Both the position numbers and the translations under genes were made by a program. This document shows positions 2,076 through 7,306 of a stretch of DNA of 30,922 nucleotides, piece after piece. The stretch spans positions 1-30,922 of the forward strand of contig JBHLRS010000036.1 of NCBI GenBank assembly GCA_048882325.1, given 5' to 3'. Numbering within the stretch: position 1 is the first letter of the stretch; each line of letters starts with the position of its first letter. The DNA comes from Candidatus Thorarchaeota archaeon (lineage in GTDB: Archaea; Asgardarchaeota; Thorarchaeia; Thorarchaeales; Thorarchaeaceae). Under the pieces are notes generated by a model. That model was given only the letters and a program-made list of their open reading frames with translations. It did no database searches and was not told the origin of the DNA.

Positions 2076-2396
2076 TCAATCATCTACAACATTTTGGGAA
2101 ATCCAATTAAGATAATCCTGAGACCCCCACTTGATTGGTAGGACTACATACTCAGGTACATCATAGGGATGTTCATTCTTTATTGCGTTCCATAGCACTT
2201 CAACCCATTGAGATTCCGTCTTCATAACCAAGAGAGCTTCATCGTCAGTGACAATGTCACCCTTCCAATGATAAATACTGGTTACCTTAGGAATAATGTT
2301 GACGCAGGCGCAGACTTTCTTCTCGACTAAAAAACGTGCCAGAGCCTCGCTCTTCTCAACTGGACACGTAGTAAGTGCTACGACATACTCTTGCAT
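2076..2396 (-). CDS. cutA: Divalent-cation tolerance protein CutA
   Basis: 106 aa with CutA motifs ACVNIIP..SIYHWKG, E.LLVMKT, HPYDVPE, YLNWI. Confidence 0.95.
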   Translation of the reverse strand: MQEYVVALTTCPVEKSEALARFLVEKKVCACVNIIPKVTSIYHWKGDIVTDDEALLVMKTESQWVEVLWNAIKNEHPYDVPEYVVLPIKWGSQDYLNWISQNVVDD

Positions 2397-2497
2397 GACC
2401 TATTAATCACCATCTTGCCATATAGCGACTTCTGTTGGTCTTTCATAAAGCGAAGGTCATTTATACCCACTCAAAAGCTCGGGGGCTCGGTGATTCC

Positions 2498-3895
2498 GTG
2501 AGAAAATTCAAGCCAATAGGAGTAATGCCTGCACTCGTCACTCCCTTCACTCGCGATGGGGACATCAGTGAGGAAGGTTACAAGCAGGTCATTGACTATA
2601 CAATTGAAAATGGTGCCACGGGAGTAGTTACTCTTGGAACCACCGGAGAATTCTCCTATCTACGAACAGAAGAACGCAAGAAGATGCTGAAACTAACTCT
2701 GGAGTATGTTGATGGAAGAGTTCCAATTATAGCTGGAACAGGACAGCATAGCACTCGCGCTACAGTAGACCTCACAAAATATGCTGCAGATCTTGGATGC
2801 GATGCAGCGCTGGTGATATCTCCTTATTATCTCCGACCATCTGACAAAGGATACTATGAACATTATGCGACTGTCTCGAGAAAAGCTGACCTCCCAGTCT
2901 TGATGTACAATATTCCTCAATGCACCCTCGGAGTCCTTAATTCTAATATCGTCGAGGACTTGGCTGAGCTTGACAACATCATTGGTATCAAGGATAGTAG
3001 TGGAAGTGTTCCGTACATTCTCGAACTGATTCAGAAGCTCAAAGGTAAGATGGAAGTCATAATTGGGGCAGACGAGTGTTTCTTGTCAGCAGTTGTAGCA
3101 GGTTCAAAAGCGGCGATAATGGCTTCAGCTAACGTCATTCCTCACCTCTGGCTTGAAATAATGAGGTTGGCTCAAAGTGGAAAGATAGAGGAAGCCGCTG
3201 AGCTTCAACAGACCACTCAGACCTTTGCTCGAATGGTTTTAAAATATGGAGCAGCTCCTCCTGTGAAAGCCGCTCTTAGAATGTTGGGTGTCAAGGCTGG
3301 TCGTTCCAGGATGCCTTTGGATAGCGGAGGAACACTCACCCCTGAGATAAAAGAAGAGATTCGTATTGAACTTGAGAGAATGGGTCTGATTGAGAATATT
3401 GACCACGAAACCGTTCAGAAGGACATTCATATTCTTGAATTTTTGAAGGAGCAAGGTGTAGCTATCCGTGAAACTGCAGAGATTCAATCCAGCTTCGCAG
3501 CTAATGATACGGTATCAGCAGGCATCGTTGTAGGTCGAAAGAATGGTCCTTTGGGTCATGCCTTTGTCCAGTTACTGACAATGCCAAAAAATGGTCATGA
3601 AGCATTGACAGTTATCCTTGAGCCGAACCTACCTGTCAAACCAAGTAGCCTAATGCTCCCTATAAGGAAGATCCAATCAATGCGTCAAGCTTCTCTCTTC
3701 TATGGCCCTATACAATCAGGAGCTGCTAAAGCCATCGCAGCATTCTTGGAGGCTGGAAAGATTCCCAAGAACTCCTTGACCGATGATGTGACAATCCTTG
3801 CACTGGATATTGATTTGAATGCAAGAGACCGCCGTGAGCTCACGACAGCAGCACAACAAGCTGTTGAAAGTGCACTTGCGGGAATATGGGGGTGA
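2498..3895 (+). CDS. DapA/NAL-family class I aldolase fused to C-terminal Fae-like domain (paralog 1)
   Basis: PALVTPF, GTTGEF, PYY, YNIP, GIKDSSG (Schiff-base Lys). The C-terminal ~140 aa carry the Fae-type segments ILEPNLPVKP and RQA..FYGP.QSG.AKA. Start moved to GTG 2498, preceded by a GGTGA SD. Confidence 0.88.
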   Translation: MRKFKPIGVMPALVTPFTRDGDISEEGYKQVIDYTIENGATGVVTLGTTGEFSYLRTEERKKMLKLTLEYVDGRVPIIAGTGQHSTRATVDLTKYAADLGCDAALVISPYYLRPSDKGYYEHYATVSRKADLPVLMYNIPQCTLGVLNSNIVEDLAELDNIIGIKDSSGSVPYILELIQKLKGKMEVIIGADECFLSAVVAGSKAAIMASANVIPHLWLEIMRLAQSGKIEEAAELQQTTQTFARMVLKYGAAPPVKAALRMLGVKAGRSRMPLDSGGTLTPEIKEEIRIELERMGLIENIDHETVQKDIHILEFLKEQGVAIRETAEIQSSFAANDTVSAGIVVGRKNGPLGHAFVQLLTMPKNGHEALTVILEPNLPVKPSSLMLPIRKIQSMRQASLFYGPIQSGAAKAIAAFLEAGKIPKNSLTDDVTILALDIDLNARDRRELTTAAQQAVESALAGIWG

Positions 3896-3900
3896 ACAAA

Positions 3901-5376
3901 ATGCCAAAGAAATATCGCTTCAAAGGTGTGTACCCCGCGCTGGTCACACCTTTCAATGAGAATGGTGTAAATGAAAAACAGTATCGGGGTCTAATTGAAC
4001 ACACCATCAAACTTGGAGCCACTGGAATAGTTCCATGCGGAACGACGGGTGAGTTCACAAGCATGAGGTTTGAAGAGAAGGTTGATGCAATCCGTATTGC
4101 GTGTGAGGTCGCAAAAGGTCGAGTTCCTGTCTTGGCTGGAACTGGAGCTGCATATACTGGTGATGTTGTTAAGTTAACCCGAAGAGCGGCTGAATTGGGT
4201 GCAGCAGGCGCACTTGTGGTGTCACCGTATTTTCTTAAACCATCGGACAAGGAGATCTATGAGCACTTTGAGAAGGTCGCAAACAACAGTGACATACCAA
4301 TCTTTGTCTATAACATTCCTCAAGTAACAGGAGTCCCATTACACTGGACACTCATTGATGGACTCCGAGAGATTGATGGCATCATAGGTCTTAAAGACTC
4401 CAGTGGCGATTTGATCAATCTAACCACCATTCTTGTGAGAAAACCCGAAAACTTTCAGGTAGTTGTGGGTCATGATGAGGTAGCACTCCCAGCCCTCGCT
4501 TCAGGCTGCGATGGGGCAATCCTAGCCAGTGCCAATGTTTTTCCTGACCGTTATCTCAAAATGCAGACAGCTCTTGCTACGGGGGACCTGAAGGAAGCTC
4601 TCATTATTCAGCGAAGTATTCAGAAGATAGTTCGTATCTTTGTTAATCATGGTGGAGGATTAGCTGTCAAGGCTGCTCTAAATATGATGGGCGTTCCTGT
4701 TGGGTCAGCAAGACCACCCCTAGAGATTGGTGATGCATTAGGCTATGATATGTATGACGAGATTCGAACTTGTCTTGAAGACCTTCAGATGATTCCTCGT
4801 GGTATTGTCACTTTCAAGATGGGAGACCGGTCCATTGAGTCAGAGGCTTATCCAAAAGCAGTGGGTATGGTCCCTGATGTCATTGAGGATTTGACACTAC
4901 TTCATGGTGAAGCACTCTTTGGTGGTGGAAGTGACGTTGCCCATGTTGATTTGATTCTAGGGTTGCGTGATGGTCCCATGAGTGTGGCTCTAAAGAATGC
5001 TGGAAAAATCACTGAGAACACTCATCCATCCAATATTATCAAGGATTTGGAGCTAGCAACAGTCTTTGCTCCTACTGTTACAATAACTTCAGAGAAACAC
5101 AAGGCAATGGTTTATGACGTAGCACAGAGAGCAGTTGCTGATGCAGTTCGAAGGACAATCACAGACACAATCATTCCCGAGGAACTTGTACCGGATTTGG
5201 TGATTGCAGCGAATGTTTTCGTTCACCCAAATGCTGTTAATCCAACACGCGTTCACATCAACAACTTCATTGCAGTGCGACACGCCATCCGTAGAGCTTT
5301 AGAAGGCCGTCAGAGTGTGGAGGAGATTGTTGCTAGAAAGGATTCTGCAAGACATCCATTCGCTTACAATCCCTAA
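3901..5376 (+). CDS. DapA/NAL-family class I aldolase fused to C-terminal Fae-like domain (paralog 2)
   Basis: PALVTPF, GTTGEF, YNIP, GLKDSSG. C-terminus has Fae motifs GEALFGGG..VAHVDLILG, AQRAVADAV, VFVHPNA, AIRRALEG and terminal HPF. ATG 3901 is preceded by a GGGGTGA SD that contains the upstream stop codon. Confidence 0.9.
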   Translation: MPKKYRFKGVYPALVTPFNENGVNEKQYRGLIEHTIKLGATGIVPCGTTGEFTSMRFEEKVDAIRIACEVAKGRVPVLAGTGAAYTGDVVKLTRRAAELGAAGALVVSPYFLKPSDKEIYEHFEKVANNSDIPIFVYNIPQVTGVPLHWTLIDGLREIDGIIGLKDSSGDLINLTTILVRKPENFQVVVGHDEVALPALASGCDGAILASANVFPDRYLKMQTALATGDLKEALIIQRSIQKIVRIFVNHGGGLAVKAALNMMGVPVGSARPPLEIGDALGYDMYDEIRTCLEDLQMIPRGIVTFKMGDRSIESEAYPKAVGMVPDVIEDLTLLHGEALFGGGSDVAHVDLILGLRDGPMSVALKNAGKITENTHPSNIIKDLELATVFAPTVTITSEKHKAMVYDVAQRAVADAVRRTITDTIIPEELVPDLVIAANVFVHPNAVNPTRVHINNFIAVRHAIRRALEGRQSVEEIVARKDSARHPFAYNP

Positions 5377-6178: not shown

Positions 6179-7306
6179 ATGGATAAGTCCCGTATGTTGT
6201 CCCTTCTCAAAGACCTCTTAGCTGCCAACTCGCAGAATCCTCCTGGATATGAAGCTGACGTGGCAAAGGTCCTTCAAGATCATCTGGAATCTTTTGGCAT
6301 TGCATGCACCTCAGTTGGTCCAGCAAAGCGTCCCAATCTGATCTTTTCCAGCCACGACGGTCAGAAAGGTGACATCATTATGCACGGTCATATGGACACA
6401 GTTCCTGTAGGTCCAACAAAGGATTGGACCCATGACCCATTCGCTTCAGAAATTGTTAATGGCCGACTCTACGGAAGAGGCGCTTGCGATATGAAAGGTC
6501 CTATCGCCGCTCTTGTTGAGACCCTAATTCTCTATACTGAGGAGCGACATGCAAAGCCTCTTGTTGTACTCACAACATCAGATGAAGAGAGTGGTTGCTC
6601 TGGGGCTGAAGAGGTTGCTGCCAGCGGACTCCTCAACGGAATCCGTTATGGTGTTTGTGCAGAACCAACAGGTCTACAAGTTCTTGTTGGAGAGAAAGGG
6701 ATGTTCTGGTCTAAGGTCGTTGCAAAAGGAAAGTCTGCTCATGGTTCGCGACCGGAGGAAGGAATCAACGCAATTCAAGATTGTATAGATGCAATCAATA
6801 TTATCAAGGAGGAGGAGTTCTCGTATGAACCTGATGACCTACTTGGTGAGCCCACATTGAACATCGGGATGATTGAAGGTGGTATCAAAATTAATGTGGT
6901 TCCCGACCATTGTGAAGCTCAGCTTGACATGCGTATTGTGATGGGTCAAGATCCTGACTCTCTCTTGAAAGCGATGAATGGCCGACTAGAACACGCAGGA
7001 CTATCTGATAGAGTCAAGGTTGAATATGTGCATGGCCAACCAGCAGTTCTGACACCCACTGATTCTGAGATTGTGAAATTAGCTCAATCTACAGTGGAAC
7101 GAGAAACAGGAACCAGACCTACTTTGGGCACAGCTACATATGGAACAGATTGTTCAGTATTGCAACCCAAAGTTGGTATTCAACATGTAATCTGTGGACC
7201 AGGTTCGATAGAACAAGCTCATCAGCCTGATGAATACATTTCAATTGATGAGTTGCATAAATCTGTGAGTATCTATCTAAAGATTGCACGCTATTTTGGC
7301 GGCTGA
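6179..7306 (+). CDS. M20 family metallo-hydrolase (ArgE/DapE-like deacylase)
   Basis: HGHMDTVP, GRGACDMKG, SDEE, AEPT, HGSRPEEG, GGIKINVVPD, AHQPDE motifs. Confidence 0.93.
   Translation: MDKSRMLSLLKDLLAANSQNPPGYEADVAKVLQDHLESFGIACTSVGPAKRPNLIFSSHDGQKGDIIMHGHMDTVPVGPTKDWTHDPFASEIVNGRLYGRGACDMKGPIAALVETLILYTEERHAKPLVVLTTSDEESGCSGAEEVAASGLLNGIRYGVCAEPTGLQVLVGEKGMFWSKVVAKGKSAHGSRPEEGINAIQDCIDAINIIKEEEFSYEPDDLLGEPTLNIGMIEGGIKINVVPDHCEAQLDMRIVMGQDPDSLLKAMNGRLEHAGLSDRVKVEYVHGQPAVLTPTDSEIVKLAQSTVERETGTRPTLGTATYGTDCSVLQPKVGIQHVICGPGSIEQAHQPDEYISIDELHKSVSIYLKIARYFGG

Follow-up and report, generated by a model that had tools for sequence, protein, structure and literature searches.

Introduction

To our knowledge, Fae has been described only as a homo-oligomer of identical subunits. 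The solved enzyme of Methylorubrum extorquens (1Y5Y, 1Y60) is a stand-alone homopentamer in which each subunit presents both faces of the site; the coenzyme reportedly binds in a cleft between adjacent subunits, where His22 is said to act as the acid catalyst. Here we analyze a 30,922-nucleotide stretch of a Candidatus Thorarchaeota archaeon genome (assembly GCA_048882325.1, contig JBHLRS010000036.1; hereafter the window), in which two adjacent genes, A and B, each encode an aldolase domain fused to a Fae domain. Both Fae domains share the fold of the M. extorquens enzyme and jointly carry its motifs, but the two faces are divided between the two aldolase-fused paralogues, and a five-fold ring of identical sites would therefore be impossible. 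Based on motif conservation, gene linkage and a model of the complex, we consider it likely that A and B form a heteromeric Fae with one composite site at the A/B interface, that this arrangement arose by duplication followed by complementary loss, and that the heteromer is obligate.

Two kinds of archaeal protein are informative for comparison. In the bifunctional Fae-Hps (NF009833), which occurs in most other Asgard families, Fae is likewise joined to an enzyme producing or consuming free formaldehyde, such that formaldehyde can be passed along without being released. That chain holds a complete Fae with Hps at its C-terminus, whereas A and B have a Schiff-base aldolase of the DHDPS family at the N-terminus; NF009833 (cut-off 274) gives A 72.1 and B 91.0 bits, over the Fae part only. 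The second is a single intact aldolase-Fae fusion of other Asgard archaea (L036-L045, L052-L055, P0121, P0122). It is annotated as DapA and shares the two-domain layout of A and B at 40–50% identity, but carries every Fae motif in one gene, whereas in A and B the motifs are split. This single fusion is likely both the ancestral form and the functional equivalent of the A/B pair. No paper on an aldolase-Fae (DapA-Fae) fusion was found in our literature searches.

The aldolase domains themselves belong with the DHDPS/NAL aldolases (DapA; YagE/YjhH, 2V8Z, 3N2X), their best PDB sequence matches being DHDPS enzymes (E=6e-54) and YagE (E=1e-41). Equivalents of the Schiff-base Lys, of Tyr133 and of GTTGE are common to A and B, whereas the Arg138 of DapA is found in neither. 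YagE and YjhH are 2-keto-3-deoxy-acid aldolases. Duplicated homo-oligomers in which complementary loss has left only the hetero-oligomer working are represented by the deoxyhypusine synthase paralogues of trypanosomatids and by the Vma3/Vma11 ring of the V-ATPase. The folds and chemistry of those systems are unrelated to those of A and B, and the A/B case is so far a computational one.

Results

The motifs of one Fae are divided between A and B

The two open reading frames (ORFs), at 2435-3895 and 3886-5376 on the forward strand, each combine an N-terminal DHDPS-family domain (PF00701; 253 bits in A, 241 bits in B) with a C-terminal Fae domain (PF08714, gathering cut-off 27 bits). In A the Fae match (97.8 bits) covers only profile positions 14-135, and in B (102.5 bits) it covers positions 2-158. 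Residues of A (P0001) are numbered here from the ORF start at 2435 and those of B (P0002) from the ORF start at 3886. We read the Fae motifs residue by residue from phmmer alignments to the solved M. extorquens Fae (1Y5Y), which extend over residues 17-129 only for A and 8-168 for B, and checked the coordinates by translation (Table 1).

A first-pass annotation of this DNA had described the two Fae domains as complementary halves, and the alignments largely bear this description out. Gene A keeps the PNLPxKP loop and the RQA motif. In place of the GEAL..AHIDL His loop it has AANDTVSAGIVVG, with Ser361 and Gly363 at the positions of His22 and Asp24, and its chain is about 27 residues short (..IWG, stop 3893-3895), the C-terminal HPF arm being absent. 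Gene B keeps the His loop (His codon 4942-4944), VFVHP and HPF, and has lost PNLPxKP and RQA..FGP. The claim that A has also lost the FIH strand motif needs narrowing: it is true of Thorarchaeota, where A has DIDL (3806-3817) at this position, but (F/I)xHP persists in the A-type proteins of two other families, so FIH/FVHP has been lost from A only in Thorarchaeota. In place of its missing arm, A seems to have acquired a new C-terminal feature: just past the point of truncation, all A-type proteins of the three families end in a conserved Trp, as (I/A)W followed by 1-7 residues (here AGIWG, 3878-3892).

The same division is seen among the residues that we take to be the UniProt active-site and binding residues of Fae (His22, Asp24, Leu53, Lys71, Thr73 and Gln88). 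B keeps the equivalents of His22, Asp24 and Thr73, all three of which A has lost, and the Gln aligned with Gln88 is kept in both. The Lys71 position is occupied by Thr in B, as in the single fusions, within the kept PTVTI strand, and by Ile in A. The equivalent of Leu53 is Thr392 of A, which the complex model described below places against Asp355 of B.

The reciprocal pattern is shared by 53 A and 53 B representatives of sequence clusters from three Asgard families and, judged on these alignments, is far beyond chance. Across the three families, P397 of A is invariant, N398 nearly invariant, and R417, Q418 and A419 are invariant or nearly so; among B sequences, H353 and D355 are kept at 90% or more, and H490 and P491 are invariant. 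We also defined a core set of 52 Fae columns that are conserved in both the canonical Fae-Hps proteins (n=27) and the intact single fusions (n=14). Of these columns, A and B share ten, B alone retains 23 and A alone 12, and 7 are lost from both, such that 45/52 survive in A or B (Fisher odds ratio 0.25, p=0.04). With the His22/Asp24 loop found in B only and PNLPxKP and RQA..FGPxQ in A only, the full motif set exists only in the pair taken together.

Despite these losses, both domains have the Fae fold. The only strong Foldseek matches of either are 1Y5Y/1Y60 (E-values 2e-13 and 3e-16), with TM-scores of 0.72-0.82 when normalized to the query and 0.77-0.81 when normalized to the target. The AlphaFold2 model of the A domain has a predicted local distance difference test score (pLDDT) of 93.0 and matches 1Y5Y best (TM-score 0.82, root-mean-square deviation 1.6 Å); that of the B domain has a pLDDT of 88.8 and matches 1Y5Y/1Y60 best (target-normalized TM-score 0.77-0.81). 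The C-terminal arm of B is modeled with low confidence in isolation. This fits with the behavior of the arm of Fae, which is reportedly ordered only upon coenzyme binding.

The retained motifs face each other in a model of the A:B complex

A two-chain model was built from A 335-486 and B 318-496 with a 62-row alignment for each chain, along with three controls. Its interface score (ipSAE) is 0.69 (0.69, 0.67 and 0.82 in three runs), and the best of the three controls reaches 0.00. An ipSAE of 0.69 is reached by 58/80 solved complexes and by 2/110 mismatched pairs, counts that are a rough guide here because our alignments differ from those of the calibration. At least 85% of contacts are common to the runs, and partner pLDDT is 73 or higher. 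In all of them, A contributes residues 369-404 (helix α-1 and PNLPVK) and 432-452 (of which 432-439 are part of the long helix), and B contributes 335-344 (HGEAL), His353, Asp355, the strand 393-399, residues 441/443 before FVHP and the arm 476-485. In the model, then, the kept motifs of A face the kept motifs of B, with the PNLPVKP face of A lying against the His loop, the FVHP strand and the C-terminal arm of B, as the first-pass annotation would have it. We read the model as a likeness that indicates which Fae surfaces meet, which is short of proof that these chains bind.

The contact columns allow the conservation of the two sides of the cleft to be compared. We call the contact columns of B face 1 and those of A face 2. 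Identity of A to the consensus of the single fusions is 0.21 on face 1, 0.48 on face 2 and 0.24 elsewhere; for B the values are 0.48, 0.20 and 0.50. The retained residues of each protein thus partition by interface face (0.48 on its own face against 0.21 on the other for A, and 0.48 against 0.20 for B), as expected if each protein supplies one side. Entropy within Thorarchaeota gives the mirror image (face 1, face 2 and elsewhere: 1.62, 0.96 and 1.20 for A sequences; 0.72, 1.37 and 0.86 for B sequences), so that, clade by clade, conservation is highest on the kept face and variability highest on the opposite one. On proteins that keep both sides, the two faces are alike (0.51 and 0.64 in canonical Fae; 1.08 and 1.20 in the single fusions). 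This pattern of sequence conservation argues against homomeric interfaces.

A and B occur as a tandem pair that probably descends from one old duplication

A Fae profile search of 201 genomes of the phylum, after which 20 loci were fetched, returned three kinds of Fae gene: Fae-Hps, in ORFs of ~400 aa with matches of ~240 bits; a single ORF (~500 aa) that matches the full length of Fae strongly (~190 bits); and two weak adjacent matches, in the family of the window. At 14 loci the ~500-aa genes are single aldolase-Fae fusions with every Fae motif intact. Tandem pairs of A then B are found in the family of the window and in two other families (L046-L048).

The family of the window comprises 81 genomes, with Fae matches in 75 and two matches in 68. 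In 66/68 the two are adjacent, on one contig and one strand, ~1.4-1.5 kb apart, with the truncated-profile match (A) upstream; in the other two they lie on different contigs, at contig ends. Seven genomes have single matches, six at contig ends or in truncated frames, and no clearly solitary A or B was seen in the 81 genomes, the seventh single match (G194) having been left unchecked. Homologues seen singly are only of the intact single-fusion type, to which the two most distant matches to B in the protein search (P0121 and P0122) also belong; no A-type gene is present in the ~900 bases between P0121 and its contig end. Co-occurrence of the two genes, which the heteromer proposed in the first-pass annotation would demand, is therefore borne out. 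Among the genomes searched, an intact single fusion and an A/B pair were never found together.

In a maximum-likelihood tree of the aldolase domain, the A sequences (support 98/95) and the B sequences (97/95) each form a monophyletic clade. Because each clade contains all three families, we attribute the pairs to one old duplication.

The aldolase halves and an apparent two-way specialization of A and B

Both aldolase domains retain the features of the superfamily, with equivalents of the Schiff-base Lys161, of Tyr133 and of Thr44 (in GIKDSS/GLKDSS, YNIPQ and GTTGEF, respectively); the Schiff-base residue is Lys186 in A and Lys170 in B. Both also pass the DapA model TIGR00674 (224.7 bits for A and 230.7 for B; cut-off 206.15). 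The Arg138 of DapA (E. coli numbering) binds aspartate semialdehyde. Its position is taken by Cys in A (YNIPQCT) and by Val in B (YNIPQVT), and of the most frequent motif variants listed for A, B and the single fusions, none has Arg there. True DapA acts together with DapB in diaminopimelate synthesis. DapB_C was not found in the window's own genome (93% complete), in a search whose control was positive in 11/14 reference genomes. We rejected a true DapA identity on these two grounds, the missing Arg138 and the DapB not found, for which reason the two genes probably do not merit their database name, '4-hydroxy-tetrahydrodipicolinate synthase'. Besides A and B, the genome has a single DHDPS-family gene (C17:44897-45748); it has GNTGEF/GVKYA motifs, which we take to be KdgD-like rather than DapA-like, and lies near a gene of the semialdehyde-dehydrogenase family (C17:41646-42161).

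The two aldolases differ in the equivalent of Tyr107, the trans-acting residue that in DHDPS extends into the active site of the neighboring subunit. It is Tyr in 14/14 single fusions and 48/53 A sequences, and Phe in every B motif variant listed (at least 49/53 sequences). In one genus (L049, L051, P0105, P0108), B has GLSDASG, in which the Schiff-base Lys is replaced by Ser, and ASLGEF for GTTGE, and yet its Fae His loop is perfect. On these replacements, the aldolase half of B is degenerating, and specialization appears to be two-way, with A the better aldolase and B the better Fae. Loss of the aldolase with an intact His loop is as expected if the essential job of B is to supply a Fae half-site within a complex with A, and the retention of a dead aldolase domain suggests that it has a structural role in that complex. 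The B genes with a degenerate aldolase are at L049:3787-5232 and L051:4049-5524.

Genome context and a proposed reaction

No other Fae domain was found in the window's own genome, in which A and B are the sole Fae carriers. The presence of Mch indicates that this organism uses tetrahydromethanopterin (H4MPT). Neither Hps nor a Fae-Hps fusion was found in this 93%-complete genome; ThrC is present and homoserine dehydrogenase (Hom) was not found.

By analogy with Fae-Hps, the fusion would most likely pass formaldehyde between methylene-H4MPT and a pyruvate-enamine, making or cleaving 4-hydroxy-2-oxobutanoate. A more specific scheme is possible, although we hold it only tentatively. Here the duplication would have divided the labor of an obligate hetero-oligomer twice: A would be the working pyruvate aldolase and contribute no more than a lid to the Fae site, and B would be the working Fae half with the catalytic His, its own aldolase becoming a scaffold; methylene-H4MPT and pyruvate would give 4-hydroxy-2-oxobutanoate, which would feed homoserine and threonine formation in archaea that lack homoserine dehydrogenase. 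We know of this route from methylene-H4MPT and pyruvate to 4-hydroxy-2-oxobutanoate only in engineered pathways. Hom occurs in 2/43 Thorarchaeota-family genomes. Replacement of Hom by the aldolase-Fae as a general rule was rejected, as both Hom and the fusion are present in three other families (f9, 17/40 genomes; f16, 4/5; f8, 1/1). The link between the aldolase-Fae and a missing Hom is thus only partial, a lead and not a rule.

Organization of the locus

The features of both genes are collected in Table 1. The true starts are likely GTG 2498 for A and ATG 3901 for B, because homologue lengths (456-465 aa for A; mostly 491-492 aa for B) and Shine-Dalgarno sequences point there; the longest ORFs would be too long at 2435-2497 and 3886-3900. 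A Shine-Dalgarno-like GGTGAT lies 4 nt upstream of GTG 2498, and that of B, GGGGGTGA, lies inside the end of A, an arrangement typical of coupled translation. We rejected the joining of A and B into one protein by read-through or frameshift, since their frames differ and B starts from an ATG preceded by a Shine-Dalgarno sequence of its own.

Table 1. Coordinates of genes A and B, their domains and the motifs discussed in the text (window positions; model contacts are those of the predicted complex).
Feature	Position	Strand	Remarks
Gene A, aldolase-Fae fusion	2498..3895	+	465 aa from GTG 2498; ORF open from TTG 2435
A, DHDPS-family class I aldolase domain	2516..3322	+	Pfam match
A, aldolase motifs	GTTGEF 2636-2653; SPYY 2819-2830; YNIPQC 2906-2923; GIKDSS 2984-3001	+	
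A, degenerate counterpart of the His loop, SFAANDTVSAGIVVG	3491..3535	+	Lacks the His and the Asp
A, truncated Fae domain	3515..3880	+	Pfam profile positions 14-135; fold kept
A, retained PNLPVKP loop	3623..3643	+	Contacts B residues 340-344 in the complex model
A, retained MRQASLFYGPIQ, start of the long helix	3680..3715	+	C-terminal half of the helix contacts B in the complex model
Shine-Dalgarno sequence of B, GGGGGTGA	3888..3895	+	Within the final codons of A, including its TGA stop; 5 nt before ATG 3901; sequence read directly
Gene B, aldolase-Fae fusion	3901..5376	+	491 aa from ATG 3901; ORF open from ATG 3886
B, DHDPS-family aldolase domain	3919..4725	+	Pfam match
B, aldolase motifs	GTTGEF 4039-4056; SPYF 4222-4233; YNIPQV 4309-4326; GLKDSS 4387-4404	+	
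B, full-length Fae domain	4906..5361	+	Pfam profile positions 2-158
B, retained His loop, GEALFGGGSDVAHVDLILG	4906..4962	+	His353 codon 4942-4944, equivalent of His22; Asp355, equivalent of Asp24
B, IIKDLELATVF, deletion site replacing PNLPxKP	5035..5067	+	4-residue gap relative to 1Y5Y; 4-6 residues deleted
B, KHKAMVYDVAQ, degenerate counterpart of RQA..FGPAQ	5095..5127	+	Only Ala-Gln kept
B, retained VFVHP strand motif	5215..5229	+	phmmer alignment and translation
B, retained ARHPF in the C-terminal arm	5347..5361	+	Arm residues 476-485 contact A in the complex model

The pair is flanked by genes for CutA1 (2076-2396, reverse strand) and for an M20 deacylase of the ArgE/DapE family (6179-7306, forward strand). 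Other Thorarchaeota contigs (L063, L064, L049-L051), two contigs from the protein database among them, preserve the order CutA1, A, B, M20 deacylase; in L040 and L055, single fusions likewise have an M20 homologue downstream. Genes nearby include an Arf-like GTPase and one with a Vps22/36 domain, and the best protein matches carry the name Thorarchaeota or Promethearchaeota.

Two other conserved proteins, neither of them belonging to a Pfam or NCBIfam family, recur upstream of single fusions and of two non-Thorarchaeota pairs: one of ~323 aa (P0243-like; L048:2316-3284, also L038-L041, L046 and L055) and one of ~440 aa (P0244-like; L037:2237-3556, also L036, L043-L045, L052 and L053). Their genes are mostly directly upstream, two of the 323-aa copies being 1-2 kb off, and the 440-aa protein has a 68%-identical homologue in the genome of the window (C18:40815-42083). 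Both may be pathway partners.

Discussion

We propose that A and B descend from one aldolase-Fae fusion whose site for H4MPT and formaldehyde lay in the cleft between neighboring subunits, as in solved Fae. A tandem duplication would have been followed by the loss of one side of the cleft from each copy. B would have kept the catalytic side, namely the GEAL strand, His353 and Asp355, the PTVTI strand, VFVHP and the C-terminal arm, and A the complementing side, namely helix α-1, the PNLPVKP loop and the start of the MRQAS..YGPxQ helix. A functional Fae site would then form only where the kept face of A meets the kept face of B, and the two proteins, which are expected to be made from one tightly coupled transcript, would therefore be an obligate heteromer. 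The motif pattern, its conservation, the linkage of the genes and the fold are direct results; the A:B interface is modeled, and composite catalysis, the stoichiometry of the assembly and the aldol reaction outlined above are inferred.

The single site at the A/B interface that the first-pass annotation suggested is thus supported by the face partition, by co-occurrence and by the complex model. The motive that it offered is not supported as stated. It had suggested that a split Fae could resolve a symmetry clash between pentameric Fae and dimeric or tetrameric DapA barrels, but a complete Fae is evidently compatible with such partners: because other Asgard archaea have an intact Fae joined to the same aldolase, and many archaea one joined to Hps, no such clash is needed to explain the split.

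Several observations weigh against the composite site or limit how far it can be taken. Seven of the 52 core columns are lost from A and B alike, and both proteins miss the Fae equivalog cut-off of TIGR03126 (118.05), A with 87.0 and B with 117.4. In a divergent pair with the same synteny (L063:1975-4976), B (P0110) has AARVNV, in which Arg replaces the catalytic His, and its HPF has become HPS; its A partner has PRHAS in place of MRQAS. In that lineage the Fae site itself seems, from its sequence, to be decaying, and Fae catalysis is therefore not maintained everywhere. Because the Fae homopentamer is a solved structure (1Y5Y), the success of the complex model may reflect memory of that interface, and the two faces were themselves defined from the model and not from crystal contacts. 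Finally, a ring of five cannot be completed by alternating A with B, which means that these proteins must assemble differently from known Fae. The unused faces are highly variable, which suggests that A and B form an open Fae unit and not a closed ring; such an open unit would fit a two-fold aldolase dimer.

Another way to explain these data is that B alone is the working Fae, as a homomer or as a monomer that binds H4MPT without PNLPxKP, and that the Fae domain of A is a decaying remnant or a spacer. The Fae domain of B is indeed the better preserved overall (identity outside the faces of 0.50, versus 0.24 for A) and comes close to the NCBIfam Fae cut-off (117.4 versus 118.05). The Fae reaction also proceeds spontaneously (PMC8879981), such that a weakened site might suffice. 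We nevertheless regard this explanation as unlikely, because the kept face of A shows no sign of decay: P397 is invariant, N398, R417, Q418 and A419 are invariant or near-invariant, and this face is the most conserved part of A (entropy 0.96, versus 1.62 for the unused face). A homomer of B would, moreover, set its conserved face 1 against its own most variable, deletion-bearing face.

The paired Fae domains could instead be non-catalytic, forming a pterin-binding, regulatory or assembly module for the aldolases that would still be an A:B heteromer. The catalytic His lost in one B lineage would be accommodated by such a module, as would the 7/52 core columns gone from both proteins and the failure of either domain to reach the equivalog cut-off. 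It would sit poorly with the retention of His353, Asp355 and the HPF arm in nearly all B proteins, even those with a dead aldolase, and with A and B being the sole Fae domains of an H4MPT-using genome; we give it little weight. That A and B are independent homo-oligomers with different new functions, in which motif loss reflects new ligands and linkage only a shared pathway, is very improbable. Both aldolase domains of the window do keep their core catalytic residues, and each could act alone. Independent enzymes would not, however, be expected to be conserved in mirror image on just the two faces that the model brings together, to keep strictly to a tandem order in which their translation signals overlap, to exclude and be excluded by the intact single fusion, or to include a B with a dead aldolase in one genus.

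The heteromeric Fae that we favor would thus be a known enzyme fold and a known site in an undescribed, split form. If true, it would be an unusually clean natural case of duplication and complementary loss creating an obligate heteromer, and one in which the intact single-gene ancestor is still present in sister lineages, making a direct comparison possible. These data also flag as misnamed the hundreds of database entries that are called "4-hydroxy-tetrahydrodipicolinate synthase". For those who wish to characterize a Thorarchaeota aldolase-Fae enzyme, the heteromer would have a practical consequence, namely that A and B would need to be expressed together.

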